Shown here piece by piece: positions 2,930-50,734 of a stretch of DNA of 64,000 nucleotides (the first letter of the stretch is position 1; each line of letters starts with the position of its first letter). The stretch is from an uncultured Fidelibacterota bacterium. Lineage in GTDB: Bacteria; Fidelibacterota; Marinisomatia; Marinisomatales; UBA1611. A program made the position numbers and the translations under genes. Below the pieces are notes generated by a model. That model did no database searches and was not told where the DNA came from. It saw only the letters and a program-made list of their open reading frames with translations. The stretch covers positions 5,601 through 69,600 of the forward strand of contig CACKSF010000001.1 of NCBI GenBank assembly GCA_902602795.1, in the 5' to 3' direction.

Positions 2930-3727
2930 CTAATCCTTTTTATTCCAAAATGGTTTTCTTTTTTCAAAGAAAGATGCAAACCCTTCACGTCCTTCTTCAT
3001 GTACAATACATTCAGAAAATAATTTAGCAGCATGCGCAGTATCAATATTATAGTTTGAATTAAGAAGGTTTTTTGTAACCGAAATTCCATTCGGAGAACA
3101 TTTTTTCACCTTTTTAATGATCTGCATTACTTCATAATCTAAGTCTTTTTTTTCTTTTACAACATAATCTGCCATTCCTATGAAGAATGCCTTATCTCCG
3201 CTGAATACTTCACCTAGTAGCATAAGTTTTTTCCCATTATTAAATCCCACTTTTTTAATTATGTAGGGTGCTATTTGAGCTGGTGTTAATCCTATCTTTG
3301 TTTCTGTTAAAGAATATTTTGCATTAGATGTGGATACTAAAAAATCAGTAGCACATGCTATGCCGACGGCACCTGCCATGCAAGCTCCTTCTACCACAGA
3401 AATAGTAACTTTAGATAAATTACTGATCTTAGTAAAAATTTCCCCAAATTTTATACTCATTTTCATTGCTTTATCACGAGTATTATTTTTTTCGGAAGCT
3501 ATATTTTGCATCCATTTCAGATCTGCTCCTGCGCAAAAAACGTTTCCTTTTCCACGAAAAATAACACCTCGAATAGATGGATTATTTTCAATTAAATCTA
3601 ACGTTTGAGAGATTTCTCCTATTAAAATTTTAGATAAAGAATTTCGTTTTTTAGGCCTATTGAACCATATTGTTAACCAATTATTACTCAAATCTAAAAT
3701 ACATTCTTTAGTTTTTGGTATTTTCAT
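2930..3727 (-). CDS. enoyl-CoA hydratase/isomerase (crotonase family)
   Basis: Crotonase oxyanion-hole region VFCAGADLK and EGACMAGAVG. C-terminus EGREGFASFFEKRKP. Confidence 0.85.
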   Translation of the reverse strand: MKIPKTKECILDLSNNWLTIWFNRPKKRNSLSKILIGEISQTLDLIENNPSIRGVIFRGKGNVFCAGADLKWMQNIASEKNNTRDKAMKMSIKFGEIFTKISNLSKVTISVVEGACMAGAVGIACATDFLVSTSNAKYSLTETKIGLTPAQIAPYIIKKVGFNNGKKLMLLGEVFSGDKAFFIGMADYVVKEKKDLDYEVMQIIKKVKKCSPNGISVTKNLLNSNYNIDTAHAAKLFSECIVHEEGREGFASFFEKRKPFWNKKD

Positions 3728-22656: not shown

Positions 22657-22910
22657 TATTTTAATTCACTCCTATTGAAAATTTTCACTGCATAACGAGG
22701 CTCGCCATAATATATTTTATTTGCAAATTGGGAAACTTGAGATGCTAGAATTAAGTATGCCCAAGTAGGAACAGTAACACTGGCGCATCCTTTAATGATA
22801 ACTTTTTCACCATCATACTGTTTCATGTTATGATCTTTAACCATTTTCCGAAAAGATTTTTCACGTATAATCCCATTATCAAGAAAATCGTCTAGAAGAA
22901 TTGTTTTCAT
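22656..22910 (-). CDS. small conserved protein, DUF2480-like (suf-operon associated)
   Basis: REKSFRKMVKDHNMKQYDGEKVIIKGCASVTVPTWAYLIL resembles, from memory, the DUF2480 family found next to sufS in FCB genomes. Shorter than typical members. Confidence 0.45.
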   Translation of the reverse strand: MKTILLDDFLDNGIIREKSFRKMVKDHNMKQYDGEKVIIKGCASVTVPTWAYLILASQVSQFANKIYYGEPRYAVKIFNRSELK

Positions 22911-24115
22911 TTAAAGTGTGATATTATTTCATTCAAAGCTTGGCATAATTTATCAATATCTTGTTCATCGTTATATAAATAAGTACTCAAGCGAGCAGTA
23001 GCAGTTTCATTTAATTTTGATAGTAGTGGCTGCGCGCAGTGATGTCCAACTCTTATTGCTATATTATATTCATTTAGAAACTGTGCTAAATCATGAGGGT
23101 GTATGTCTTTAATATTAAAACTAATGACTCCAATTCGACTTTTTGCAGAGCCATGAATTTCTATATTCTTTATTTTATTTAATTGATGTAGACAATATTT
23201 AGTTAAATGCTCTTCATGATTTGTGATTTCATTCATACCAATAGCTTCTAAATAATCTACTGCAGCACCAAGACCAATTGCTTGAATAAAATTTGGAGTT
23301 CCTGCTTCAAATTTATATGGTGTATCATTCCATGTAGCGGTTGTCATTGTAACCTTATCAATCATTTCACCACCGCCCATAAATGGATCCATTTTTTCCA
23401 ATAACTCATATTTCCCCCAGAGAACACCACTTCCAGTAGGACCTAACATTTTATGTCCAGAAAAAGCGTAAAAATCACAGCCTAAATTTTTGACATCTAT
23501 TTTTTTATGAGCAGCACCCTGAGCACCATCCACTATGAAAGTAGCACCGCATTGATTAGCGAGAGAACTAATTTTTTTGATATTGTTAACTGTACCTAAT
23601 ACATTGGAAATATGAGTAATAGATACAATTTTGGTATTAGAATTAAATAGTTGATCTGAATGATTTAAATCTAATTCTCCATCTTTTGTAATAGGAATAT
23701 ATTGAATTCTGGAACCTGTTCTCTTCGCTAGTTGTTGCCAAGGAATAATATTGGAATGATGCTCCATTTCAGAAATAAGGATTTCATCTCCTGGATTAAT
23801 ATCATTCCCTAAAGAATATGCAAGTAAGTTAAGTGATTCAGTTGCGCCGCTAGTAAATATTATTTCCTTGTGAGAATTTGCACCGATGAATGCGGATATT
23901 TTTTCTCGAGCCCCTTCATACTTTTCTGTAGCTTTCGCACCAAGAGCATATAACGCTCTGTGTACATTGGCATTTGATTCGGTATACGAAGAGTTAATTG
24001 AGTCTAATACTGATTGAGGTTTTTGAGTTGTGGCTGCATTATCTAAATAGACTAAACTTGATTTTTCAAAAATTGGGAAATCAGATTTAATTTTGTTTGA
24101 TAATTGTGACATCAC
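22907..24115 (-). CDS. sufS: cysteine desulfurase, SufS type (class V aminotransferase)
   Basis: PLP-Lys motif FSGHKMLGPTGSGVL and active-site region RVGHHCAQPL; lies in the suf operon. Confidence 0.9.
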   Translation of the reverse strand: MMSQLSNKIKSDFPIFEKSSLVYLDNAATTQKPQSVLDSINSSYTESNANVHRALYALGAKATEKYEGAREKISAFIGANSHKEIIFTSGATESLNLLAYSLGNDINPGDEILISEMEHHSNIIPWQQLAKRTGSRIQYIPITKDGELDLNHSDQLFNSNTKIVSITHISNVLGTVNNIKKISSLANQCGATFIVDGAQGAAHKKIDVKNLGCDFYAFSGHKMLGPTGSGVLWGKYELLEKMDPFMGGGEMIDKVTMTTATWNDTPYKFEAGTPNFIQAIGLGAAVDYLEAIGMNEITNHEEHLTKYCLHQLNKIKNIEIHGSAKSRIGVISFNIKDIHPHDLAQFLNEYNIAIRVGHHCAQPLLSKLNETATARLSTYLYNDEQDIDKLCQALNEIISHFK

Positions 24116-24651
24116 ATCATGCCTAATTCTAATTGGGCTTCCTCACTCATCATATCTCTGTTCCACATCGGTTCCCAGACTAGATCAACCGAAACACTCT
24201 CGACATCTTTAAGTCCATTAATTTTTCTATCTACTTCATCAGCAATAACAGGTCCCATTCCACACCCTGGGGCTGTTAGTGTCATCTGTATCGCTACTTC
24301 TTTTCCTAATTGAGCATCCTTTATCTCAAGGTTATATATAAGTCCTAATTCAACAATATTGACTGGTATTTCAGGGTCATAACAGGTTTTTAACTGATCC
24401 CAAATTTGTTGTTCGAGATTACCTTTTACTTTGGTTGGCTCTTTTTCCTTTATGTCAATGCCTAAAGCATCGGCATTTTCTGATGCGATTTGGACCATAT
24501 TTCCATTCATAATGACCGTAAAATTTCCACCAAGAGCTTGAGTAATTCTGACTAGATTTCCTGCTAGTAATTTCACCTCATCTCCAGATGGGACCATATA
24601 TGCATCAACATCTCGTAAAAGTCTTATTGGTTCTTTTGGTATATTATTCAT
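24112..24651 (-). CDS. sufT: SufT-like Fe-S assembly protein (DUF59-containing)
   Basis: C-terminal DUF59 core CYDPEIPVNIVELGLIY...TLTAPGCGMG; ~180 aa; operon context. Confidence 0.7.
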   Translation of the reverse strand: MNNIPKEPIRLLRDVDAYMVPSGDEVKLLAGNLVRITQALGGNFTVIMNGNMVQIASENADALGIDIKEKEPTKVKGNLEQQIWDQLKTCYDPEIPVNIVELGLIYNLEIKDAQLGKEVAIQMTLTAPGCGMGPVIADEVDRKINGLKDVESVSVDLVWEPMWNRDMMSEEAQLELGMM

Positions 24652-25079
24652 TGTACTAGTTTATGAATCTTATCGACTGCACTTGAAAAACCATTATTCC
24701 TTTGGCTAGTCACAGACCCCTCCAATCCGATAGCTTGAAGAATATATTGGCTATTGACTGATAAAATTTCTTCAGATGTTTGATTATTAAATATTATTTC
24801 TAAAATCTGCAGAAGACCTTTTACGATTAGAGCATCAGAATCTGTGCGAAATGTATAAGTGTTGTTCTCATGGTTTTTTGCTACCACCCATGCTTGAGAA
24901 GAACAGCCATAAATTTTATTTAATTCTGTTTTATCATCCTGTTGAAGTGGTTTCTGGTCTTTTGCCATGTCCATTAATTGGAGAAATTTGTCTTTAGGAT
25001 TCTCGAAAATTTCAAATATTTCTCGAAGGCTCTTAAGCTTATTTTCTACACTTAAGGTTGAGTCTAATCTTCTATCCAT
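24648..25079 (-). CDS. sufE: sulfur acceptor SufE
   Basis: IYGCSSQAWV persulfide-Cys motif and DSDALIVKGLL. Confidence 0.8.
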   Translation of the reverse strand: MDRRLDSTLSVENKLKSLREIFEIFENPKDKFLQLMDMAKDQKPLQQDDKTELNKIYGCSSQAWVVAKNHENNTYTFRTDSDALIVKGLLQILEIIFNNQTSEEILSVNSQYILQAIGLEGSVTSQRNNGFSSAVDKIHKLVQ

Positions 25080-26320
25080 TTATCAAAATCACTTTTTATT
25101 ATGTTAACTATTTTTGGATTTTCTAATGACTCAAAAATTTCAGAGATAAAACCATGAATTAATATTGACTTTGCAGTTTTGTAATCGATTCCTCTAGACC
25201 GCAGATAAAATAGAGCATCTTGATCAATTTCACCAGTAGATGAACCATGAGAGCATTTTACGTCATCAGCATTTATCACTAATCGCGGATTGGAATTCAT
25301 TCGTGCATTTTTTGAAAGTAATATGTTTTTGTTTGATTGACTTGAATCTGTTTTTTGAGCATCTTTATGAACAATAACTTTTCCATTAAAGACTCCGGAA
25401 GAATAGTCTTTCAAAACAGTCTTAAAATTTTGGGAACTCATGCAATTCGGACTTTTATGATTAATCAAAATATGAGTGTCTAAGTGTTGATGATTTTTCG
25501 TTAAACATAAACCACTTAAATGACACTCAGCTCCCTGACCGTTTAAATCCGAATTTACCCCAACGGACCCTAGGCTAGATCCAAAACCAAAATGTGAGAG
25601 ATAATATTTTGAGTATTTTTCTTGTTTTAAGTGGATATTTCCTGAGTTAATGGCTTGATCTGAATCCTTTTGTAACCTAATGTGTTTACAGTGACTATTT
25701 TCTTTTAATGAAAGAATTGTAGTAGAATTTGAAAAATTTCCATTTCCAAAGCCAATATGATGTTCAACCAAAGAAACAGAACTAGATTTGCCAATGTCAA
25801 TATGAATTCTGGGAGATATCATTAGTTGATCTTTACCTGCATTAATAAAAACTAAAAGGATAGGAGATTTTATTTTTATATTATTCTCAACAACTAAAGA
25901 CATCCCGCTATCCATAAAGGCAGTGTTAAGTAAATCAAAAGGTGAAGCAGCTGATTGTGCGACTTTATTTTTAGGGTCATTATAATATTCTAGATTTTTG
26001 AATATTTCTACACCTTTTGGTAAAGTAGTTAAATGTTTTTGATAGTGACCATTATTAAAGACGATTTTGTAATTATCTCCAGTAAATGGTTCAGGATACT
26101 TAAAATTCTTATTCGGGGCGTCGGAAATTTCAGAAATGCGGAAAACATTCTTTTTCAATGCTGAAAAATTTGTAAAACGAAAATCATCCCAAGATTTTTT
26201 GGACAAATTTTTCTTTAAAAACTGTTCAAAAGCATTTTTTCTTTGAGAATTAAACTTTGTAGAAAAATAGTCTCTTGTTAAAAGTTTTTCAAATTCTGAC
26301 TGATAACTAGAAGTGTTCAT
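25064..26320 (-). CDS. sufD: Fe-S cluster assembly protein SufD
   Basis: SufB/D beta-helix C-terminal region (..ADDVKCSHGSSTGEIDQDALFYLRSRGI..), located after sufC. Confidence 0.85.
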   Translation of the reverse strand: MNTSSYQSEFEKLLTRDYFSTKFNSQRKNAFEQFLKKNLSKKSWDDFRFTNFSALKKNVFRISEISDAPNKNFKYPEPFTGDNYKIVFNNGHYQKHLTTLPKGVEIFKNLEYYNDPKNKVAQSAASPFDLLNTAFMDSGMSLVVENNIKIKSPILLVFINAGKDQLMISPRIHIDIGKSSSVSLVEHHIGFGNGNFSNSTTILSLKENSHCKHIRLQKDSDQAINSGNIHLKQEKYSKYYLSHFGFGSSLGSVGVNSDLNGQGAECHLSGLCLTKNHQHLDTHILINHKSPNCMSSQNFKTVLKDYSSGVFNGKVIVHKDAQKTDSSQSNKNILLSKNARMNSNPRLVINADDVKCSHGSSTGEIDQDALFYLRSRGIDYKTAKSILIHGFISEIFESLENPKIVNIIKSDFDKWIED

Positions 26321-27057
26321 TTTTCCAACCAGCCATACCCTTTTTCTTCTAATTTTAATGCAAGTTTTTTATCGCCAGATTTAACAATCTCTCCATCAAT
26401 TAGCACATGAACAATGTCTGGTTCTATATACTCTAATAACCTTTGATAGTGGGTAATAATTAAAAAAGAACGATCTGGAGATTTATATCTATTTACTCCA
26501 TCCGAAATGATTTTTAATGCATCAATATCTAGGCCTGAATCTGTTTCATCTAGAATTGATAGGCTAGGCTCTAATGTGAGCATTTGAAGAATCTCATTTC
26601 TTTTTTTTTCACCTCCAGAGAATCCATCATTAACAGCTCGTTGTAAATAAGAAGAGTCCATTTTAAGGTCTTGAAGTTTTTCTTTGATTATTTTTAAAAA
26701 CCTAGCAGCATCCAATTCTTTTTGGCCATTATATTTTCTTTTAGCATTTAATGCTGCCTTTAAAAAATAGGTATTGTTTACTCCAGGCATCACCACAGGG
26801 TACTGAAAGGACATAAAGATTCCATGAAGTGATCTTTTTTCGGGGTTCCATTCAGTTATAGATTCGTTTTTATATTTTATATCTCCTTGTGTTATTTCAT
26901 ACCCATCTTTACCAGTAATAATATTGGAGAGAGTACTTTTTCCAGATCCATTTTTTCCCATTATGGCGTGAATTTCACCAGGTTTAATGTTCAAGTTAAT
27001 ACCATTTAATATGAATTTATTTTCGACCTTGGCGTGAAGGTTTTTTATTTCTAACAT
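26317..27057 (-). CDS. sufC: Fe-S cluster assembly ATPase SufC
   Basis: Walker A GKNGSGKST, ABC signature FSGGEKKR, Walker B LSILDETDSGLD. Confidence 0.95.
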   Translation of the reverse strand: MLEIKNLHAKVENKFILNGINLNIKPGEIHAIMGKNGSGKSTLSNIITGKDGYEITQGDIKYKNESITEWNPEKRSLHGIFMSFQYPVVMPGVNNTYFLKAALNAKRKYNGQKELDAARFLKIIKEKLQDLKMDSSYLQRAVNDGFSGGEKKRNEILQMLTLEPSLSILDETDSGLDIDALKIISDGVNRYKSPDRSFLIITHYQRLLEYIEPDIVHVLIDGEIVKSGDKKLALKLEEKGYGWLEK

Positions 27058-27076
27058 TATTTTATAAGTTAAGGGG

Positions 27077-28522
27077 TTAGCCTACACTTCCTTCTAAGGT
27101 TACTTCCATTAATTTTGTAGCTTCAACAGCAAATTCCATCGGTAACTCATTAAAAACTTCTTTGCAAAATCCATTTACGATCATAGATACAGCATCATCG
27201 ATAGAGATACCTCTTTGCGAACAATAAAACAGTTGATCCTCGCCAATATTTGATGTTGTGGCTTCATGTTCCATTTTAGCGGTAGGGTTTTTTACCTCAA
27301 TATAGGGAAATGTGTGAGCACCGCATTTATCACCAATTAGAATCGAATCACATTGTGAAAAATTTCTTGAATTTTCTGCATTTTTCATAATCTTTACTTC
27401 TCCTCTGTAAGTTTGTTGCCCTTTACCTGCAGAGATGCCTTTGGATATGATAGTACTTTTAGTATTTTTCCCAATGTGAATCATTTTTGTACCTGTATCA
27501 GCCTGCTGGAAATTATTTGTAACGGCCACTGAATAGAATTCACCAACTGAATTATCACCTTTTAAAATACAAGAAGGATATTTCCATGTAATCGCTGATC
27601 CTGTTTCCACTTGTGTCCATGAGATTCTTGAGTTTTGTCCTAAACAGGTTCCTCTCTTCGTTACAAAATTATAAATACCACCTTTCCCAGTCTTAGGATC
27701 CCCTGGATACCAATTTTGAACCGTTGAATATTTTATAGTAGCATCTTTGTGTGCGACTAATTCTACAACTGCTGCATGTAATTGGTTCTCATCCCTCATC
27801 GGAGCTGTGCAACCCTCTAAATAACTTACGTGGCTGCCTTCATCGGCAATAATAAGGGTTCTTTCAAATTGTCCGGTTTTTGCTTCATTAATTCTAAAAT
27901 AAGTTGAGAGTTCCATAGGGCAACGCACCCCTTTTGGAATGTATACAAAAGAGCCATCTGTGAAAACAGCAGAATTCAGAGCAGCAAAGTAGTTATCTGA
28001 GCTAGGAATTACAGTACCTAGATATTTTTGGATTAATTTTGGATAGTTTTTTACAGCATCTGAAAAGCTACAAAAAACAACTCCTGCTTTTTTTAGTTCA
28101 TCTTTGAATGTTGTTGCTACAGATACACTGTCAAAAACTGCATCTACCGCTATCCCGTTCAACATTTTTTGTTCGTCAAGCGGGATGCCTAATTTATTGT
28201 AAGTTTCCAAAAGTTGAGGATCTACCTCATCTAGACTAGAAAGCTGTTTCTTTTTCGGTTCTGAAAAGTAGCTTATGGATTGATAATTAATTTCTGGATA
28301 AGAAATTTTACCCCAGCCAGGTTTTTTCATTTTTTTCCACCGTTTTAAAGATTTCAACCTCCAGTCTAAAAGCCATCTAGGTTCATCTTTCTTTTTAGAA
28401 ATGGTGCGAATTACATTTTCATTTAATCCAGGAGGAAGGGTTTCGGATTCAATGTCTGTCACAAAACCATATTCATAGTCTTTATTTAAATTTGATTCTA
28501 TTATTTGTTGTTCGTTTGACAT
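27077..28522 (-). CDS. sufB: Fe-S cluster assembly scaffold SufB
   Basis: Highly conserved SufB sequence (..[13 protein letters not shown].., ..[12 protein letters not shown].., ..[21 protein letters not shown]..). I prefer the Met start MSNEQQ (~28522) to the GTG at 28576, which overlaps sufA. Confidence 0.9.
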
Positions 28523-28545
28523 GTTTTCTCTTATAAAAATAATTT

Positions 28546-28935
28546 TTACGCTGAAAAACTGGTTCCGCAACCACACGTTCTTTCAGCATTAGGATTCGTA
28601 ATTTTAAAGCCACCGTTTAGAAGATCATCTGAATAATCAATTTTAACATCTTTAAGATATAGCCAGCTTTTAAGATCGCAAATGACCGTTAGCCCGTTAC
28701 TTTTGAAGACCTTATCAAATTCTTTTTGTTTTTCATCAAAATCCATTTTATACGTCATGCCTGAGCAACCACCACCCTCTACAGACATCCTTAGAAAGTA
28801 ATTTTCTTTATTGTCTGATTTCATGACGCCTTTAAGTCTTTTAACTGCATTTTTGGTAACAAAGATAGAGGCATTTTGAAATTCCTCTTGTTTGGATTTT
28901 ATTGATGCTTTTTGCTCATTTAGTGTGTTTTTCAT
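28546..28935 (-). CDS. sufA: IscA/SufA/HesB-type Fe-S carrier
   Basis: GGGCSGM and C-terminal CGCGTSFS cluster-ligand motifs. The ATG at 28935 forms an ATGA overlap with the upstream stop. Confidence 0.85.
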
Positions 28936-29288
28936 TCCCACTCCACATTAATTTTTTGATCATTACTTTTAGTTTTTACAGGATCATATCCTAATTTTTC
29001 TCTAGCATAATCGGTCATCATCTCTGGTGTCCAAGGAGGATCAAAAGTTACGGTTACTTCGATATTATTTATTTCTTTCAGCGCCTCAATTTTATTTTTG
29101 ATGTCACCTGCCATATGTTGTCCCATTGTACATCCAGGAGTAGTAAGCGACATGGTAATTTTTACATCTCTTTTATTATTTTTGGTGTTAGTAATATTAA
29201 TATCATATATTAAACCAAGATTCCATAAATCAATTGGTATTTCTGGGTCGTAGCATTGTTTAAGAATGTCTATTATTTTTGCTTTCAT
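28932..29288 (-). CDS. DUF59 (MIP18/PaaD-like) Fe-S assembly protein
   Basis: CYDPEIPIDLWNLGLIY...LTTPGCTMG; 118 aa. Confidence 0.75.
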   Translation of the reverse strand: MKAKIIDILKQCYDPEIPIDLWNLGLIYDINITNTKNNKRDVKITMSLTTPGCTMGQHMAGDIKNKIEALKEINNIEVTVTFDPPWTPEMMTDYAREKLGYDPVKTKSNDQKINVEWE

Positions 29289-29686
29289 TTGAACGTAATA
29301 TCTGCTAAGGTCATTTTATCAAACATAGAGCGAATACTGTTATTTATACGATTTATTGGCTCTCTAATAGTACATCCACTTAATTGTTCACAATTACTAT
29401 CAAAATAGCAATCTACGATTCCCATAGGACCCTCCATGATTTCAAAAAATTTTGTCATATTAATAGTGTTTGAATCTTTAGAAATTTTGTAACCGCCTTT
29501 CGGTCCTTTGACTGATAAAATAATATTTTCTTTCGATAGTTTCTGAAGAATTTTAGCAAGCAATTCTTTAGGAATTCCATACTCTGTAGACAAAGTCTTG
29601 GCAGAGCATAATTTACCCCGCTCATTTTGTTGAAGATGGCGAAGAGCTATTAGTGCATATTCAACTTTTCTGGTGATTTTTAACAT
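29285..29686 (-). CDS. Rrf2-family transcriptional regulator (IscR/SufR-like)
   Basis: MLKITRKVEYALIALRHL.. Rrf2 HTH start. C-terminal Cys residues (CYFDSNCEQLSGC) could ligate a cluster. Confidence 0.85.
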   Translation of the reverse strand: MLKITRKVEYALIALRHLQQNERGKLCSAKTLSTEYGIPKELLAKILQKLSKENIILSVKGPKGGYKISKDSNTINMTKFFEIMEGPMGIVDCYFDSNCEQLSGCTIREPINRINNSIRSMFDKMTLADITFK

Positions 29687-29768
29687 ATGTATTTATTAAT
29701 AATTCCATGTTATGGAAAAATATGAATATGAATCAAGTATATAATACGATGATTTTAGTCGTATATAA

Positions 29769-30806
29769 CTAAGTAACTTTTATAAGGGTTGAGTTTTTAT
29801 CAGAAATATGACCGATTATTTTCGCCTCAGGATAAATTGAGTCTACAAATATCTTTGCATCCTCTGGGTTTAAAGCTATCAGCAGTCCTCCAGATGTTTG
29901 AGCATCACAAGTTAAATATCTTTGCGTATTACTTAATTTGGAATCAAATGCTATATCATTTTTTAAATATTCAAAATTTCTTCTTGTTCCTCCTGGTATG
30001 ATACCAGATTCAGCCAAGGTATCCACGGAAGGGAGAAAGTCCAACTCAGAAAAATAAATTTCTGAAGAAACTTTACTGCCTTTACAAATTTCTGCTAAAT
30101 GTCCTAATAAACCAAACCCGGTAACATCAGTAACAGCATGAATATCAAACGGTTTCAGGCCGTCTGCTGCTTTTTTATTAAGCATAGACATATTTTTTAT
30201 TGCGATATTTATAATTTCGTCAGTTACAAGACCTTTTTTTATTGCTGTCGCTATAATTCCTGTACCAAGCGGTTTTGTTAGTACTAAAGAATCTCCAGGT
30301 CGTGCTCCTGAATTTTTCCACATTTTTGATTCTTGAACCTCGCCTGTTACTACCAAACCATATTTGGGTTCTTTGTCATCAACGGAATGTCCTCCAACAA
30401 TAGGTATACCAGCTTCATTAGCTTTATCTGCTCCTCCTTGTAGAATTTCCGTAAGCATTGCTTTTGGTAGATCATTTATAGGAAAGCCTGCTATATTAAG
30501 GGCAAACAGTGGTTTTGCTCCCATTGCGTATATATCAGATAGTGAATTTGCAGCTGCGATTTGTCCAAAGTCATAAGGGCTATCAACGACAGGGGTGAAG
30601 AAATCAACAGTTTGCACCAATAATTTCCCATCACTTAGTCTTACCGCAGCTGCATCATCGGACCCATGGAATCCAAGCACTACAGAATCATGATTTGGTT
30701 GTTTCAAATTCGCTAAAACTTCTGAAAGGTCACCCGGACCAATTTTACATGCTCAGCCAGATCCGTGACTAAGAGTCGTGAGTCTTATTTTTTCTCGATC
30801 ATTCAT
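29769..30806 (-). CDS. selD: selenide, water dikinase (selenophosphate synthetase), selenocysteine-containing form
   Basis: The ORF track starts at 30707, but the frame stays meaningful upstream to ATG 30806: MNDREKIRLTTLSHGSG-TGA-ACKIGPGDLSEVLANLKQPNHD. TGA (30753-30755) aligns with Cys17 of the E. coli HGAGCGCK motif. The rest is AIR-synthase-like SelD (DDAAAV, GHSVDD). Confidence 0.85.
30714..30747 (-). promoter_or_regulatory. candidate bacterial SECIS stem-loop downstream of the selD UGA
   Basis: mRNA UAAAAUU-GGUC-CGGGU-GACC-(UUUCAGA)-AGUUUUA. The apical loop starts 16 nt after the UGA and contains GGU. The stem is imperfect, so this is a hand-fold only. Confidence 0.4.
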
Positions 30807-30812
30807 GTCTTT

Positions 30813-32795
30813 TTAGCCTTCATCTTGGGCAAGTACAACAAACCCATCTTTTGAAGAAATATTAAAAAGGGTATTCTTATCTGGAATTAATTTAATCCCA
30901 AACATTTTCTCTTTATCTTTATGCTCTTTGTAAAGTTGCAATCCTAAAACTATCTCATTACGTAATTGAGCTGCCTGCATACATTCGCCATACTTTATAG
31001 TAATCGAACCAGAATCTGAAAAGTTAAAATAGTTGGAGGCAGGTTTTATATATATTTCACTACCGTCAGCATGGAATAAATCGTCGTAAACATCTAGAGC
31101 TAGTGGCTCCTCTGACACTTGGGCCATAATTTGTGAGACAAATTGATTTGATACCATGAAATCTTCAACCCCGCTGTTTAAAATAATATCTATGTTTTCA
31201 CTATCCATTACTTCCGTAATCAGTTTTGGCCAATCGTAATTCTGAGATTCAGTACCAACCTTCGCAAGCAGTATTTGTCTTATACGAATTAGCAACGATA
31301 TAACATAGGCATCCATTTCTTCTATGGTTGCTCCACCCGGAGAAAGGATAAGGATACTATCAAAACTTTGAGGATCTATATTTTCTAGATCTTTCAGTTC
31401 GTTAAAATCAATATCTTTTATATCTATTTTTATATCAGGATATCTATCTGCTAACGATTTTTTTGTGGTTTCCATGTCATTGGATAAGGACGATGCAAAC
31501 ACATTTATTTCGGAATTTTTCTGCAAATAGCTACAGAGTTTTTCAACAATTATTTTTGTCTTTGGTGTCCAGTTTAACAAAGCAACTCGTTGGGTGTGAA
31601 CATCTAATTGTACTTTTGGTATTGAATTAATGGTAGGAGTAAATACGGCCTCACTAAAATATTTAATTGTTGAATCATCTTCAGCAAAAATAATGAGTTC
31701 ATCATCAGAATTTATAGGTTTATCTTTTGCAGGGTTTAAAATGATTTTACCTTCGGAAGTGTGTATTCCCATTGGTGTGCTACTATGAAAGCGGTTTATG
31801 CTTTCTTCAAAAGTGAGGTTGCTAGACCAACCTTCATTTGGTTTGTAAAAATAGAATTCATTTCCATCAAAGCCAACCATATCACCGTAGACCACAGATA
31901 AGCCATTTCGACTAAGTGCTAATTGAGCTATCATTCGAGATAATACGCTTACTTCGTTTAAAGCCTTCACTGTCCCATTTGAAATATTTTGAGCAAGATC
32001 TCGATCTCGGTCTGAGTGTATCTCGCAAACTATGGGTGGATGTTCTTTACCTTCACACACTGCAATAATTGACATAATTGATTTTAAAACCAATGCATCA
32101 GCAAGGGTTTTTTCTTGTTCAGGTTGCCAACTTGCAGCGCTATTAATTATGATGATGGATTTGGCATTTTCTGCCATTACTTTTTTCAAATTATTAATAT
32201 TCGTAACAACACCAGACCTTGTTATTACTCGTGTAGTCTTAAAATCAAGAATATTATCGCGTATATAATTATCCATATTTTCTTTATCATCTTCTGCTAA
32301 AATAACTATTGCTGCATCTGGTTCTGAATCATTTGCCTCTATCAATTCTCGAATAATTTCTAAGATCCTATCGCCGAATCCTAAAATTAGCGTGTGATTA
32401 TTTTCAAGTACGATACTACGCCCTCTACGCAAATCATCTAACTTTGCTTCAAAAACGCTGGTGATAAATGCAACCATACTAGAAAACAGAATTAGTCCCA
32501 CCAAAACTCCTAAGATGGAACTGAGTTTTGCTAGCCAATTGCTGTCTCCATCTGTTTCTGCAGCAGATCCTTCCATTACAGCAACATAAACTCTCCATGG
32601 AATCTCTAGCCAACTATCCAAAGTATCGTCTGGAAAAAAAGAATTGGCTATCAATCTTACAAAAACCATAATAATGAAACCAATTAAGAAGGTAAGAAGC
32701 AGCGCCATAAAAATGGAGGAGCTTCCCCTAGACATGTAATTATCAATTGCATATCTAAGTCTTTGCTTTAGTGGATATTGTGGTATCTTTACCAT
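30813..32795 (-). CDS. Castor/Pollux-like putative ion channel with tandem RCK (TrkA-N-like) domains
   Basis: N-terminus RLRYAIDNYMSRGSSS followed by TM helices, then two Rossmann-like RCK regions (HTLILGFGDR.., ALLNWTPKTK..). Family call is from memory of bacterial Castor homologues. Confidence 0.55.
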   Translation of the reverse strand: MVKIPQYPLKQRLRYAIDNYMSRGSSSIFMALLLTFLIGFIIMVFVRLIANSFFPDDTLDSWLEIPWRVYVAVMEGSAAETDGDSNWLAKLSSILGVLVGLILFSSMVAFITSVFEAKLDDLRRGRSIVLENNHTLILGFGDRILEIIRELIEANDSEPDAAIVILAEDDKENMDNYIRDNILDFKTTRVITRSGVVTNINNLKKVMAENAKSIIIINSAASWQPEQEKTLADALVLKSIMSIIAVCEGKEHPPIVCEIHSDRDRDLAQNISNGTVKALNEVSVLSRMIAQLALSRNGLSVVYGDMVGFDGNEFYFYKPNEGWSSNLTFEESINRFHSSTPMGIHTSEGKIILNPAKDKPINSDDELIIFAEDDSTIKYFSEAVFTPTINSIPKVQLDVHTQRVALLNWTPKTKIIVEKLCSYLQKNSEINVFASSLSNDMETTKKSLADRYPDIKIDIKDIDFNELKDLENIDPQSFDSILILSPGGATIEEMDAYVISLLIRIRQILLAKVGTESQNYDWPKLITEVMDSENIDIILNSGVEDFMVSNQFVSQIMAQVSEEPLALDVYDDLFHADGSEIYIKPASNYFNFSDSGSITIKYGECMQAAQLRNEIVLGLQLYKEHKDKEKMFGIKLIPDKNTLFNISSKDGFVVLAQDEG

Positions 32796-42237: not shown

Positions 42238-42314
42238 GGTGGGTGTAGCTCAGCTGGTTAGAGCACCTGGTTGTGGCCCAGGAGGCCGTGGGTTCAAGTC
42301 CCATCACTCACCCA
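42238..42314 (+). tRNA. tRNA-His (GTG)
   Basis: Hand-folded cloverleaf: G-1 + GTGGGTG acceptor, anticodon arm CCTGG-TTGTGGC-CCAGG, T-arm GTGGG-TTCAAGT-CCCAT. Confidence 0.85.
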
Positions 42315-42322
42315 GATAATTT

Positions 42323-42397
42323 CGGGGTATAGCGTAGTCCGGTTAACGCGCCTGCTTTGGGAGCAGGAGATCGGGAGTTCAAATCTCTCTACCCCGA
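42323..42397 (+). tRNA. tRNA-Pro (TGG)
   Basis: Acceptor CGGGGTA/TACCCCG, anticodon arm CCTGC-TTTGGGA-GCAGG, T-arm GGGAG-TTCAAAT-CTCTC. Confidence 0.9.
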
Positions 42398-42399
42398 CA
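42355..42399 (+). repeat. attL core (inside the intact tRNA-Pro)
   Basis: CTTTGGGAGCAGGAGATCGGGAGTTCAAATCTCTCTACCCCGACA. Confidence 0.8.
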
Positions 42400-42520: not shown

Positions 42521-42735
42521 GCACCCCGCGAGTTGGGTCCCATCTACCCATAATTCCATTGGGACTCCTACAGAGGTTATTATAATATTTTCTTTAATCA
42601 TTATTTTAGCTACATTCAAATATCATCAGGAGTGGTTTCATATTTGAAACCCACCAACCGAGCCCAGATAAATCATGGTCACGGTGGTTAGAGCCTTAAA
42701 CGCTAGATGTGCCCAGGAAAATGGGAAACATGATT

Positions 42736-42775
42736 AGCCGCCTGATGTGCGGCTTTTTTCGTTTATAGACCTACC
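42736..42775 (+). repeat. junction repeat A, diverged copy (A0)
   Basis: AGCCGC-CTGATGT-GCGGCTTTTTTCGTTTATAGACCTACC: hairpin, T tract and GTTT..TAG box in the same layout as the A family. Confidence 0.45.
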
Positions 42776-42808: not shown

Positions 42809-43063
42809 ATGTCAAAAAATAAAAAACAACAATTAAAGGATATTAAGACTGAAGAATTAGATGTTAATGGTAATCCAATAGACCCTAATAGAGAATACAT
42901 TGGAAATAAAGTTAAAGTACCGATGGCATCTTTAAATTCATCTATTTATAAAACACCCACTACTATAATACTCAAAGGAAAACCAATAACGTCAGACAAA
43001 AAGAAGAAAGCAAAGTTACTTGAATTCATAAGTAGAGCCCCCATTAGTTTTGATTCAGAATAG
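42809..43063 (+). CDS. hypothetical lysine-rich protein
   Basis: ORF preceded by a strong SD (AAAGGAGA-N6-ATG). No motif recognised. Confidence 0.5.
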   Translation: MSKNKKQQLKDIKTEELDVNGNPIDPNREYIGNKVKVPMASLNSSIYKTPTTIILKGKPITSDKKKKAKLLEFISRAPISFDSE

Positions 43064-45872: not shown

Positions 45873-46115
45873 ATGAAACTAGGCAACAATTTCCTTATAT
45901 CCATAATGGAGAGACTCGATAGAATTGAGTCATAAATAAATAATCCAAAAGCAAATTCTCGCAAATTATTATCTATTAAAGATATTATTGATTTCTCTGG
46001 AATATCTGATCCCACCATAAGACGATCAATAAAAAGAGGGACACTAAAGGCATATAAGAAAGAAGGGAAGAAGTTGTTTCGAAGAGCAGATGTAGAAAAC
46101 TGGCTCAAAGAATAA
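45873..46115 (+). pseudogene. Xis/AlpA-type helix-turn-helix (HTH_17-like) gene interrupted by an in-frame TAA
   Basis: After TAA at 45933-45935 the same frame reads INNPKANSRKLLSIKDIIDFSGISDPTIRRSIKRGTLKAYKKEGKKLFRRADVENWLKE*, an excisionase-like HTH. There is no ATG/GTG/TTG after the stop. TAATG overlap with the primase gene. Confidence 0.5.
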
Positions 46116-46345
46116 TGGACTATCAACATTTTTTTGAGAATTTAGTGGGCGTTAAAAAAATCAAATGGTCAGGCAAACAAGGCACTGGATGCTGTCTTTT
46201 GCCTGATCACGATGATAGAAATCCGTCATTCTCATTCAACATTGAGACAGGTCAAAACTTCTGTCATTCTTGTGGTTGGAAAGGCAACGCATACACACTT
46301 GCCAAAGAGCTAAATATGGACAACCCTTGCCATATACTCAAATAA
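46115..46345 (+). CDS. CHC2 zinc-finger module of a DnaG-type primase
   Basis: CLLPDHDDRNPSFSFNIETGQNFCHSCGWKGNAYTL = CxxxH...CxxC zf-CHC2. Confidence 0.7.
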   Translation: MDYQHFFENLVGVKKIKWSGKQGTGCCLLPDHDDRNPSFSFNIETGQNFCHSCGWKGNAYTLAKELNMDNPCHILK

Positions 46346-46418
46346 TTGCAAATCTATCAAGCACAAGCCTAATAACACTATTAAAAGCCATTCTAGAGAC
46401 ATAGATGAGGTAGGAATC

Positions 46419-47012
46419 ATGAAGATGTATGAAGAACTAAAAGAAAGGTACGGAAACAGGATAAAACTCGGAGATAATTACAAGGATAAATACGTCGGAA
46501 AAAGTGATAAAGATGAGGCTGTTTTCATTTATCCAAAAGGCATCAAGATTCATAAGAAGTACTGGATTAAAGAAGCATCAATAGACACTTCTAATCAAAT
46601 CTTTATGATGGATGAATTGTTAGGTTTTGATAATTCTAAGCCACTCTACTTATTTGAAGGTGAAAAGGATGCTATAGCCTCAAAATTACAAGGAGTATCA
46701 TTCTTTTGCGGTGCTACTTCTATCCCAAAAAATATAGATGCTTTGTATGAGTTTGATGAAGTCGTACTCATATACGATAATGATGAAGCAGGTGTAAATG
46801 GTGCTAAAAAGGTAGCTGAACGGATTAAATCAGAATCACCAACAACCAAAGTACTAATTGCTCAATGGGATTCATCACTTCCAAAAGGATATGATGTTTA
46901 TGATGATGGTAAAAAGACTGGATTCGCCAAGGTAGATGAAGCCATTGCAAATACAATTATATATGATTTAAAAATACCAACAGAATTAGAAGGATTTACA
47001 ATTATGACATGA
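46419..47012 (+). CDS. Toprim-domain primase module
   Basis: LYLFEGEKDAIA (catalytic Glu) and VLIYDNDEAGVNGAKK (DxD). Ends at a TGA that is in frame with the following P-loop segment. Confidence 0.7.
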   Translation: MKMYEELKERYGNRIKLGDNYKDKYVGKSDKDEAVFIYPKGIKIHKKYWIKEASIDTSNQIFMMDELLGFDNSKPLYLFEGEKDAIASKLQGVSFFCGATSIPKNIDALYEFDEVVLIYDNDEAGVNGAKKVAERIKSESPTTKVLIAQWDSSLPKGYDVYDDGKKTGFAKVDEAIANTIIYDLKIPTELEGFTIMT

Positions 47013-47974
47013 AAAAAAGCAAGTAATACCGTTCCTAAACCAACAGAATGGATAATAGAAAATGTATTGCCTAAGGGATTTAATTCGTGTCTTGCAGGAA
47101 CGACTGGAAGTAAGAAATCTATGTGGGCAATCCAATTAGGTTTGTCAGTTGCGAATGGGAAAAAGACTTTTGTGGAAACCGTATCAAAGGTGGAAGTAGA
47201 AAGGTGTTATTTATTGATACGGAGATAGGGCAAGATGAATTACTTCGCAGGTATCACAAAATAAAAAGCAAAATAGATTGGAAAGGTGATGACAATATCA
47301 TAATGATGTCTAAAGGCGGAACAACGATGGACATTTGGGAACAAACAGAAAAAATGATTCAGGCGTATAGACCCGAAGTAGTCATCATTGATAGTATGTA
47401 TAATGCCACAAGTGTTTCAGATTTCTCCAAATCAACTGGGATGAGCAAGGTAACAGATGCTCTTGCTACTCTTAAAGATAAATACGGAGTTACTATTTTA
47501 ATTATTGCTCATTTCAATAAAGGTAATGATGAACAGGTAACTCATATAGATAGGATACAAGGTTCTGCAGTTTTCAAGAACTCTATTGAATTTCAAATAT
47601 GTATGATACAGACTAACATTGATGATTTCAATATCTTCCAAGTACAAAAGACTAGAGGAGTTCCTTTTGACAGATCTTACATTGGTCTTAAGTGGGATGA
47701 TTTTTGGTTTACTACAAAAGGTATCATTGAAGATATATCTGATTACCTTGTGACTGAACATAAGAAAAAAAAGTGGACTTCTGTATTGGAAGATTTGCCT
47801 GACAGGTTTGATACAAAGGATTGGCTGAATGTTTTTAATAGCAAGTTTGAGATGTCAGAAAGAACTGGAAAAGTTTGGCTTAAAGAGGTTAGTAGAACCC
47901 AAATGGTAGATAAGATTTCTCACGGAGTTTATGAGAAGAAACTTAAACTAATTGAAGAGAATGAAATTGATTAA
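47013..47974 (+). pseudogene. RepA/DnaB-like P-loop helicase (AAA_25-like), frameshifted
   Basis: Walker A segment ..CLAGTTGSKKSMWAIQLGLSVANGKK lies in the Toprim frame (47013-~47165). The remainder (VLFIDTEIGQDELLRRY.., VVIIDSMY Walker B, IIAHFNKG) lies in the frame of ORF 47123-47974. The shift maps to the gggAAAAAg run near 47158-47163. Confidence 0.65.
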
Positions 47975-49385: not shown

Positions 49386-49622
49386 ATGAGTATGAGTGAA
49401 GTTAATAAAGGTGGAAGACCTAGAGAAGAACCCACCAATGTACGCAGTGTTAGATTGCCCAACAGGATTTGGAAATTGGTACAAAAGGCATCGAAAGGCA
49501 GTCGTTCAGTCAATGAATATATTCAAACAATAATTGAGAATGATTTGATTAAACGGAAAATGCTAAAGAAGTCAGAACGGAAAAAACTATCCTCTAAAAC
49601 CTCTACGAAAAGGAGTCAGTAA
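49386..49622 (+). CDS. ribbon-helix-helix (CopG/Arc-like) DNA-binding protein
   Basis: GGRPREEPTNVRSVRLPNRIWKLVQKAS....SVNEYIQTIIENDL fits a beta-alpha-alpha RHH pattern. SD AGGAG is present; TAATG overlap with the integrase. Confidence 0.5.
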   Translation: MSMSEVNKGGRPREEPTNVRSVRLPNRIWKLVQKASKGSRSVNEYIQTIIENDLIKRKMLKKSERKKLSSKTSTKRSQ

Positions 49623-50734
49623 TGGCGATACTTAAAACTCGTAGAGATAAATGGTATGAAAGAGTGATATGGTTTGTAAATGGTAAGTTTATCGAAAAAC
49701 AAATACCATTAAGAACCTCATCAAAAGTAACTGCAAGAGAGAGAATTGCAGAGGTCAAAAAGGTAGAAGGAGATATTAAACAAGGGATGGAGTTTTCATT
49801 CCCTTGGCTATCCAATTTTGCAAAGACCAAAGTAAAACGGTTCACCATTAAAGAAGCAGTTGATCAATGGTTATTAAAACGGAAGGGTAAAGTTGCGAAT
49901 TCTACATTGGATTTGAATGAGGATGGTTTGAATTATTTTCTCAAGTTCATGGGCAATGCAAATCCTATCGAAACAATCTCAACAAGTAATGTGGAACAAT
50001 TCATTGATTGGTTGGAAGGAAGGGGTTTAAGCAAGGCAAGTATTAATATACATTTACGAACTATAAAATCGATGTTTAGGTATTATCTAAATGTTGGTAG
50101 ACTGACTTCAGTTCCTCATATCCAACAATTGAGGATTCCAAAAACAGAACCTATCTACATCACAGATAATGAGTTTCAATCCATAATGGAATTAGATTGG
50201 TTAGATGATTTTTACAAGCTTGTATTCCTTTTATATCGTGAGACTGGAATGAGACTAAACGAGCATATGATTTCAGTACTTGATGGAGATTGGGTTGACA
50301 TACCTAATACATCCAAAGGTAAGGTAGGAAGAAACACCCAATTAGATAGACCAATGCAATCCATCTTCAATGAATTGAAAGAATGGTTAAGCAGTGGTTA
50401 TGGTTCAAGGCTTAAGACACCTGATGACCATATCAGTAAGATGTTTAAGAAAGCCTTAAGAAGTATAGGTGCAGATGAAAGTAAACATTTCCATTCACTT
50501 CGGCATACATTTGCAGTAAGAAGATTGATACAAGGAACATAAATATATGATTTAAAATTGTTGATGGGTCATAGTTCAGTCACAACTACTGAAGTCTATT
50601 CAAATATGAATCTTAAACGAGTGTCTCAAGGTTTTCCAACCATAGTCACAAGATATGTAAATATGACTAAAATTGGAAATTTGGACACAAAAACCTTGGA
50701 CACAATAGCATTACCAATGACCTATGTGACGTAA
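49622..50734 (+). pseudogene. tyrosine recombinase/integrase with an in-frame TAA before the catalytic Tyr region
   Basis: YRETGMRLNE (Arg I) and HSLRHTFAVRRLIQGT (HxxR), then TAA at 50540-50542. The same frame continues IYDLKLLMGHSSVTTTEVYSNM (His, Tyr nucleophile) to the stop at 50732-50734. Confidence 0.8.

Follow-up and report, generated by a model that had tools for sequence, protein, structure and literature searches.

The selD gene on the minus strand of a 64,000-nucleotide (nt) stretch of contig CACKSF010000001.1 from an uncultured Fidelibacterota bacterium (the whole of that stretch being referred to here as the window) is very probably a selenoprotein gene, in which the UGA at codon 18 is read as selenocysteine (Sec). 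The start of the gene in the window's open reading frame (ORF) list lies downstream of this codon. An earlier note on the sequence had proposed that selD encodes a selenoprotein and that its start had been mis-called on account of a Sec-encoding TGA. The proposal is upheld by the analysis described below: family models align through the TGA, homologues have either TGA or a Cys codon at this position, the codons upstream of it are under selection and TGA is otherwise a normal stop.

Extent of the selD reading frame

The long reading frame is made up of the following elements.

29769..30806, minus strand: full-length selD coding sequence, 345 codons followed by the stop TAG at 29771-29769; codon 18 is TGA, very probably read as Sec
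30753..30755, minus strand: in-frame TGA, codon 18, at the catalytic Cys/Sec position of the G-x-G-[C/U]-x-C-K loop
30756..30806, minus strand: the 17 N-terminal codons (MNDREKIRLTTLSHGSG) overlooked by the ORF track, with ATG at 30806-30804
30705..30707, minus strand: TTG taken as the start by the ORF track, the internal Leu34 of the long frame

The entry in the ORF list spans 29769..30707 and specifies a 312-residue product with a TTG start, 33 codons short of the long frame. The latter begins at ATG 30806 and proceeds through 17 sense codons (MNDREKIRLTTLSHGSG) to the TGA at 30755-30753, after which it continues as ACKIGPGDLSEVLANLKQ; there is a single internal TGA and the frame is the same throughout. 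The coordinates and translation of this frame, continuous with the listed ORF, are as the earlier note had given them, and the listed start at 30707 is, as was also claimed there, an internal Leu codon, number 34 of the 345. On the minus strand the start region reads ...GAAGGC TAA AAAGAC ATG AAT GAT CGA GAA AAA ATA AGA CTC ACG ACT CTT AGT CAC GGA TCT GGC, and the sequence from the TGA onwards is TGA GCA TGT AAA ATT GGT CCG GGT GAC CTT TCA GAA GTT TTA GCG AAT TTG AAA...

The conceptual protein is a SelD

Family scans were performed with the conceptual 345-residue protein, in which Cys was substituted at the position of the TGA. The NCBIfam model TIGR00476 (selD) matches residues 8-316 with a score of 398.6 bits (cutoff 125), residue 8 falling on position 1 of the model, and NF002098 matches at 381.8 bits (cutoff 299). 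Two AIR-synthase-related Pfam domains are present, PF00586 (AIRS) at residues 50-157 and PF02769 (AIRS_C) at residues 169-339. Among solved structures, SelD from Escherichia coli (3u0o) aligns with residues 5-316 (E 6e-79). In this alignment, lshgsgCackigp is paired with YSHGAGCGCKISP, which places the TGA on E. coli Cys17, the first Cys of SHGAGCGCKISP; this is the position in the HGAGCGCK loop to which it had been assigned in the earlier note. The glycine-rich catalytic loop (G-x-G-[C/U]-x-x-K) is present as HGSG-U-ACK, compared with HGAG-C-GCK in 3u0o. In chain 2yye the TGA pairs with the Cys of SSGCAAKVGPGDL, the segment that aligns with GSG[U]ACKIGPGDL of the protein described here; 2yye and 2zod we take to be SelD from Aquifex aeolicus, another Sec-containing SelD (Sec-SelD).

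These matches identify the conceptual protein as SelD (selenide, water dikinase; selenophosphate synthetase) over its full length, with a predicted activity of ATP-dependent selenophosphate synthesis. Since the family models and the structures align through the TGA, the 17 upstream codons represent a genuine SelD N-terminus. Alignment of the 345-residue protein, with U at residue 18, to SelD families and a search for similarity between the upstream codons and SelD N-termini had been suggested as tests of the proposal, and both came out in its favour: the family matches are full length and above their cutoffs, and the alignments to TIGR00476 and 3u0o begin ahead of the TGA, at residues 8 and 5.

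Codon 18 in related genes

For comparison, genes for the closest SelD relatives were collected from 80 genome loci, each with 10-kb flanks, which together with the window amount to some 1.2 Mb. The nearest are in metagenome-assembled genomes (MAGs) labelled Candidatus Neomarinimicrobiota/Marinimicrobia, TMED6 and MED648, with 85% and 84% identity, respectively. Codon 18 is TGA in all 24 Marinimicrobia-type loci, which include two Fidelibacterota copies and some unclassified MAGs, and it is TGT or TGC in all 56 of the remaining homologues, from Bacteroidales, Lentimicrobiaceae, Saprospiraceae, Paenibacillaceae and other groups. The TGA is kept, moreover, in each of nine further copies from the clade of the window that were found in metagenomes (Tara and other marine assemblies). 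Together the TGA-bearing copies, 24 from loci and nine from metagenomes, span 53-95% protein identity, and the conserved context of the codon in the Marinimicrobia-type loci is [ST]-x-G-[SAG]-G-TGA-A-[CS]-K-[IL]-G. Chance cannot account for such a distribution of TGA and Cys codons.

Comparison of codons 7-17 with those of 28 relatives revealed 153 synonymous and 46 nonsynonymous codon differences, a ratio which shows that the stretch ahead of the TGA is translated in the selD frame. To judge from this pattern of substitution, the 17 codons are under purifying selection at the protein level. A sequencing error is excluded by the occurrence of TGA in 33 copies from the lineage, by its alternation with Cys codons and by the coding-type change upstream.

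The protein databases give a different picture of residue 18. In a collection of 5.8 billion proteins, every full-length (345-residue) relative that was fetched, down to 62% identity, has 'W' at this position, P0001, P0002 and P0017 among them. Three of these entries were traced to their contigs, where the DNA reads TGA and translation table 11 does not reproduce the database protein. The Trp is therefore an artefact of gene calling with code 4 on short contigs. Other close relatives in the collection are truncated, at 279-315 residues. SelD entries that are mis-stated in one or other way, truncated or with a false Trp18, are P0001, P0002, P0017-P0024, P0043, P0048, P0062, P0079 and P0085; no exact match to the window's own truncated SelD is on record.

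Two variations on the gene were seen among the relatives. In two Marinimicrobia selD genes (L012 1202 and L013 10052) the loop is U-A-S-K in place of U-A-C-K, which indicates that a loop containing Sec can do without its second Cys. A Fidelibacterota MAG contig (L020) carries two copies of selD, at 3404 and 10052, with about 6.6 kb between them; the TGA is present in each, and their downstream hairpins are near-identical.

A candidate SECIS element downstream of the UGA

Translation would start at ATG 30806 and UGA at codon 18 would be decoded as Sec, giving a product of 345 residues in which Sec occupies the place of E. coli Cys17 in the N-terminal glycine-rich loop (G-S-G-U-A-C-K). By analogy with characterised bacterial selenoprotein mRNAs, SelB-GTP and Sec-tRNA(Sec) would be recruited by an mRNA hairpin, the selenocysteine insertion sequence (SECIS), just 3' of the UGA. 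The sole conserved candidate for such a hairpin in the clade of the window (the window, L001, L002, L018 and L214-L222; hereafter the window clade) has the following features.

30728..30740, minus strand: candidate minimal SECIS, GGUC-CGGGU-GACC, 12 nt after the UGA
30740-30737, 30736-30732 and 30731-30728, minus strand: its 5' arm, loop and 3' arm, forming a stem of 4 bp and a 5-nt loop
30723..30752, minus strand: codons 19-28 (GCA TGT AAA ATT GGT CCG GGT GAC CTT TCA), a zone of reduced synonymous change that contains the hairpin

The motif GGUC-N5-GACC is the sole element common to 28 distinct Sec-type sequences, and the RNAalifold consensus for these sequences consists of exactly that hairpin, with its pairs kept in 98% of the cells of the alignment. 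It is also recovered by the minimum free energy (MFE) fold and is invariant in 13 of 13 window-clade copies; in one of them, L216, two substitutions flanking the stem lengthen it to 7 bp (-7.7 kcal/mol, z-score -2.5). Codon usage in this zone is constrained. Codons 20-27 (TGT AAA ATT GGT CCG GGT GAC CTT) are nearly invariant in six window-clade genes with 68-88% protein identity, and the fraction of synonymous codon differences among these six is 0.23 in codons 19-28 versus 0.46 in the rest of the gene (Fisher p ~1e-8, from pairs that are non-independent). Two rare codons are among those fixed, CCG, which accounts for 7% of the Pro codons in the window, and GAC, which accounts for 20% of those for Asp; given the codon usage of the window itself, the choices made in the hairpin zone have a joint probability of about 0.002. 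These constraints are evidence of selection on the RNA in the hairpin region.

The earlier note had described a stem-loop with a GGU-containing apical loop at 30714-30747, compatible with a SECIS and beginning 16 nt downstream of the TGA. Conservation is confined to the apical part of this structure, a stem of 4 bp closed by the CGGGU loop, and does not extend to the lower stem, so that the reservation made in the note about an imperfect stem was well founded. The position was also misjudged: the stem-loop as drawn begins 6 nt after the TGA; at 16 nt the apical stem comes to the end of its 5' arm, and the loop begins at +17. The lower stem, UAAAA/UUUUA (30747-30743 with 30718-30714), is broken at one or two of its five pairs in L214 and L219-L222; over the 28 sequences it is 82% paired, with one pair broken in half of them. 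Neither this stem nor an outer GCUGAG/UUUUAGC helix seen in the MFE fold is kept in L214, L216 and L219-L222, nor do they exceed shuffled sequence in stability, and both were rejected. A hairpin of 8 bp with a 6-nt loop that encloses the UGA itself (CUUAGUCA/UGGCUGAG, 30773-30752, minus strand; -7.9 kcal/mol, z-score -1.9) is lost in L214 and L216 and is probably fortuitous.

In Marinimicrobia outside the window clade, a second hairpin, GCYCAR-GUN-YUGRGY, follows directly after the first, 28 nt past the UGA, and always has GU in its loop. Its location is as follows.

L003-L017, L020, L023, L028, L059 and L080: second hairpin, columns 43-57 of alignment A1; the equivalent stretch of the window is 30711-30725

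Compensatory double changes occur at two of its six pairs, one being CG in 10 sequences and UA in nine, the other AU in 11 and GC in 10. Of the four covarying columns, one is synonymous (the third base of an Ala codon) and one is a silent CUG/UUG change (the first base of Leu); the CG/UA pair links the third base of the Ala codon to a Gly/Ser replacement. The tandem structure of two hairpins has a folding energy of -14 to -17.5 kcal/mol and z-scores of -2 to -4. The compensatory changes demonstrate selection at the RNA level downstream of the UGA in this lineage. In the window clade the second hairpin has been lost, with a change in the encoded peptide from DLAQVLG/S to DLSEVLA, and the proximal hairpin has been kept. 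As a SECIS for the window the second hairpin was rejected, three of its six pairs being formable there.

We consider GGUC-CGGGU-GACC the most likely SelB-binding element in the window clade, with moderate confidence, and its assignment as a SECIS plausible.

SelA and SelB in the lineage

Metagenomes were scanned with a low-GC-biased back-translation of the pyridoxal phosphate motif of SelA (GDKLLGGPQAG). Two marine contigs were retrieved, L138 and L113, both of 36% GC and both with a selA-selB-mutS arrangement. A protein search with SelA from L138 led to NCBI entries annotated as L-seryl-tRNA(Sec) selenium transferase from Candidatus Marinimicrobia/Neomarinimicrobiota bacteria (MBC8214571.1, MBL7023262.1, MDP6936008.1 and others). 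The loci are listed below.

L138 5104-8369; L113 44-3309; L202-L213 and L223: selA-selB, overlapping by 4 nt, with mutS always the next gene

The conserved order on these contigs is MFS - GAF/HD - SelA - SelB - MutS - YicC, and SelB of the Marinimicrobia type bears the SelB-specific winged-helix domains PF09106 and PF09107. Two of the records, the GORG single-cell genome CACPKV01 and MDTB01, have a GC content of 29% and a tetranucleotide correlation with the window of 0.96-0.97. The presence of selA-selB-mutS loci in Marinimicrobia-labelled MAGs and in the 29%-GC contigs indicates that the phylum has SelA and SelB, its low-GC members included. From this we infer, as the earlier note had from the TGA itself, that the genome of the window carries selA, selB and selC, the support for selA and selB being at the level of the lineage. 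In many of the contigs, a gene for a GAF/HD-domain protein and one for an MFS transporter precede selA-selB.

Weighing the selenocysteine reading

A number of observations weigh against the assignment of codon 18 to Sec, and they concern the hairpin, the decoding machinery and an earlier survey. The hairpin in the window has only 4 bp and a folding energy of -4.2 kcal/mol, with a z-score of about 0, so that it is no more stable than shuffled sequence; when a 71-nt stretch spanning the TGA is folded, the MFE has a z-score of +0.57 relative to shuffled sequence. RNAalifold detected no covariation in the proximal hairpin among the 28 sequences, and the stronger distal hairpin is absent from the window. 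Rfam contributed no SECIS family, either in a gathering-threshold scan of the window or in a permissive scan of 30600-30850, made where the earlier note had suggested a covariance model over 30700-30760; apart from noise, the scans yielded just a SAM-I/IV riboswitch and two tRNAs. Furthermore, three of four Cys-type selD genes from Paenibacillaceae share both the peptide (KIGPADL) and the nucleotides GGTCCGGCGGAC(C/T) at the position of the proximal hairpin, which weakens the hairpin as proof of a SECIS. The nucleotides are thus shared by Sec and Cys forms. In the Cys-type genes they may simply reflect the encoded peptide or may be left over from an ancestral Sec form; these copies are located as follows.

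L043 10037-10090; L053 10049-10102; L054 10040-10093: GGTCCGGCGGAC(C/T) in Cys-type selD of Cohnella/Paenibacillus

As for the machinery, selA, selB and a gene for tRNA-Sec are absent from the 64-kb window and from within 10 kb of selD in the 80 loci; tblastn with E. coli SelA and SelB gave no matches in this set, and the only tRNA genes in the window are for tRNA-His and tRNA-Pro. ARAGORN identified no tRNA-Sec in the Marinimicrobia loci examined, the selA-selB contigs included. Among the records examined, no single MAG has both the selD TGA and selA/selB: the selA-selB records CACPKV01, MDTB01, JACNGG01, JBPMFW01 and Ga0072503 are not among the selD-bearing MAGs compared. Finally, three SAR406 single-cell genomes have been listed as containing an 'orphan SelD' (Peng et al. 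2016, PMC5029168).

The orphan listing, the lack of sel genes and tRNA-Sec near selD or in the window, and the minimal, thermodynamically weak SECIS candidate of the window clade would all favour read-through of the UGA without SelB or SECIS, for example by a near-cognate tRNA-Cys or tRNA-Trp, so that Cys or Trp would occupy residue 18 in a true orphan-SelD lineage. Such read-through seems to us very unlikely. selA-selB loci encoding the SelB-specific domains are found in Marinimicrobia-labelled MAGs and in low-GC contigs resembling the window, and the SAR406 single-cell genomes in question are incomplete. Moreover, a codon serving only for Cys would be expected to become TGY, as in the 56 homologues, yet it is TGA in 33 of 33 copies from the lineage, and the synonymous sites after the UGA are constrained. 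The 'orphan SelD' status in SAR406 is more likely an effect of incomplete genomes and an overlooked Sec codon than a new selenium trait. We likewise give only a slight chance to a low-GC surface SAR406 clade that lacks SelA, SelB and tRNA-Sec and decodes the conserved UGA in a non-canonical way or, in a milder version, to canonical SelB acting on a minimal SECIS of 13 nt after loss of the distal hairpin.

It is still more improbable that the TGA is a genuine stop, with translation beginning internally (at TTG 30707 or GTG 30680) to give a product without the N-terminal loop, or with selD a pseudogene. The ORF track and public gene callers do give products of 303-312 residues. Nevertheless, the internal start picked by the callers for relatives is another one (GTG, 303 residues), and this disagreement between relatives indicates that the choice of a truncated start is an arbitrary one. 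Ahead of the TGA, the 17 codons share the selD frame, encode a peptide that is conserved throughout the phylum with mainly synonymous change, and align with the SelD family model at its positions 1-10. The ATG at 30806 leaves a gap of 6 nt after the TAA (30815-30813) of the upstream gene, which encodes a 660-residue Castor/Pollux-RCK channel-like protein, as against 105-132 nt for the internal starts. A truncated product would, in addition, lose the Cys/Sec and the Lys of the catalytic loop, both reportedly essential in mutagenesis of E. coli SelD.

The window, which has a GC content of 33%, also speaks on the code itself. A simple gene map contains 63 genes, 10 of which terminate in TGA, and reading through these stops adds 3-19 senseless residues, except at a broken primase-helicase gene, where 71 are added. 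No window gene other than selD can be extended in a meaningful way through a TGA upstream of it. In the window, then, TGA serves as a normal stop. A genome-wide code with TGA as a sense codon (Trp in table 4 or Gly in table 25), which the many 'W' entries left in the databases by short-contig gene callers might suggest, can be dismissed, because the 10 TGA-terminated genes make no sense when read through, no other gene needs read-through and the homologues carry Cys at codon 18, never Trp or Gly. With these alternatives set aside, we infer that the residue inserted at codon 18 is Sec.

The earlier note had further supposed that other TGA-containing ORFs might be mis-split. The window contains no split selenoprotein gene besides selD: a scan of the window and the 80 loci for TGA codons with conserved flanking protein and U/C alternation returned only selD (24 U, 56 C), the remaining hits being off-frame or antisense translations of conserved genes.

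Relation to known Sec-SelD proteins

Sec-SelD is an established class in bacteria and archaea, and the gene described here is a re-annotation that involves no new decoding mechanism. It belongs to the same enzyme family as the known examples and has UGA at the same position of the catalytic loop; as with them, the product helps to make the selenium donor required for its own synthesis. It differs in coming from low-GC Marinimicrobia (SAR406) and in having U-A-C-K in the loop, where the known proteins have U-A-A-K. According to a recent preprint (bioRxiv 10.64898/2026.04.03.716425), Sec-SelD was first described in Haemophilus influenzae and Methanococcus jannaschii (Guimaraes et al. 1996, cited there). 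The Global Ocean Sampling (GOS) survey counted 357 Sec forms of SelD in 40 samples, which put the family second in abundance among marine selenoproteins (Zhang and Gladyshev 2008, PMC2398784). Actinomarina, a streamlined low-GC marine bacterium, has a Sec form of selD that is overlooked by ordinary gene callers, and its closed genomes were shown to contain selA, selB and selC as well (bioRxiv 10.64898/2026.04.03.716425); for the present gene, in contrast, selA and selB are known at the level of the lineage. The GOS and Actinomarina genes are of the same type as this one, but the sequences there were not assigned to SAR406, and in the literature searched no paper gives Marinimicrobia/SAR406 a Sec-form SelD, the sole mention being the orphan listing. 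Genes for a cysteine desulfurase and an ABC ATPase were noted beside the orphan selD genes (Peng et al. 2016, PMC5029168), which agrees with the presence of a suf operon downstream of selD in the window. Unlike an orphan SelD, this selD is itself a selenoprotein gene, in a phylum that has selA-selB loci.

The candidate hairpin may be compared with the SECIS of the E. coli fdhF type. Both lie in the coding sequence directly 3' of the UGA, with about 11-12 nt to the minimal stem and G/U in the apical loop. The hairpin in the window is much shorter than the ~40-nt fdhF-type element, with a 4-bp stem and a 5-nt loop, and it has neither the conserved lower stem nor the bulged U.

Gene neighbourhood and other features of the window

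Downstream of selD on the same strand are rrf2, a SufT-like gene, sufA, sufB, sufC, sufD, sufE, sufT and sufS, in that order.

22907-32795, minus strand: block of channel gene, selD and suf genes, also present in L001-L006, L014-L017, L020, L023 and L028; divergent korAB lies beyond the Castor/Pollux-RCK channel gene

Of the 24 Sec-type loci, 11 have the full order, in which korAB and the channel gene lie upstream of selD and suf downstream; the SelD proteins concerned range from 53% to 95% identity. In three further loci selD adjoins suf genes but the channel gene is missing or the suf order is altered, bringing the total to 14 of 24. SufS-type cysteine desulfurases act on selenocysteine and can supply selenium to SelD in vitro, and for this reason the adjacency of selD and suf might be functional.

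A second TGA, at 47010-47012 between Toprim and AAA_25 segments, was considered as a Sec codon and rejected: it lies in a primase-helicase pseudogene, broken into four by stops and a frameshift, within a decayed mobile element. The pieces of this pseudogene are as follows.

46115-46345, plus strand: CHC2 zinc ribbon piece, in the decayed integrative element
46419-47012, plus strand: Toprim piece, ending in TGA
47013-47228, plus strand: N-terminal part of AAA_25, in the same frame as the Toprim piece
47123-47974, plus strand: C-terminal part of AAA_25, in a different frame

The decayed integrative element comprises, besides the primase-helicase at 46115-47974 (plus strand), a segment at 49386-50542, the tRNA-His and tRNA-Pro genes at 42239-42398 and a tyrosine integrase at 49622-50542. 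The GC content drops to 28-31% toward the end of the window. Directly after the two tRNA genes is a SAM-I/IV riboswitch (42618-42741, plus strand; 49.5 bits, gathering threshold 41.1), which precedes an ORF of 84 residues at 42809-43063 that matches no Pfam family.

Implications

In annotation, selD should be given 345 codons with Sec at residue 18, and not 312 or 303. In public protein collections the family is at present misrepresented in two ways, as truncated products or with a spurious Trp. Predictors that rely on a SECIS should take warning from the window clade, which keeps only the 4-bp hairpin. The organism is a likely user of selenocysteine, and other UGA-containing genes elsewhere in its genome may consequently be split. 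Finally, the window clade, with its 4-bp proximal hairpin, and the rest of the phylum, with two hairpins in tandem, constitute a small natural experiment on the minimal SECIS for SelB.

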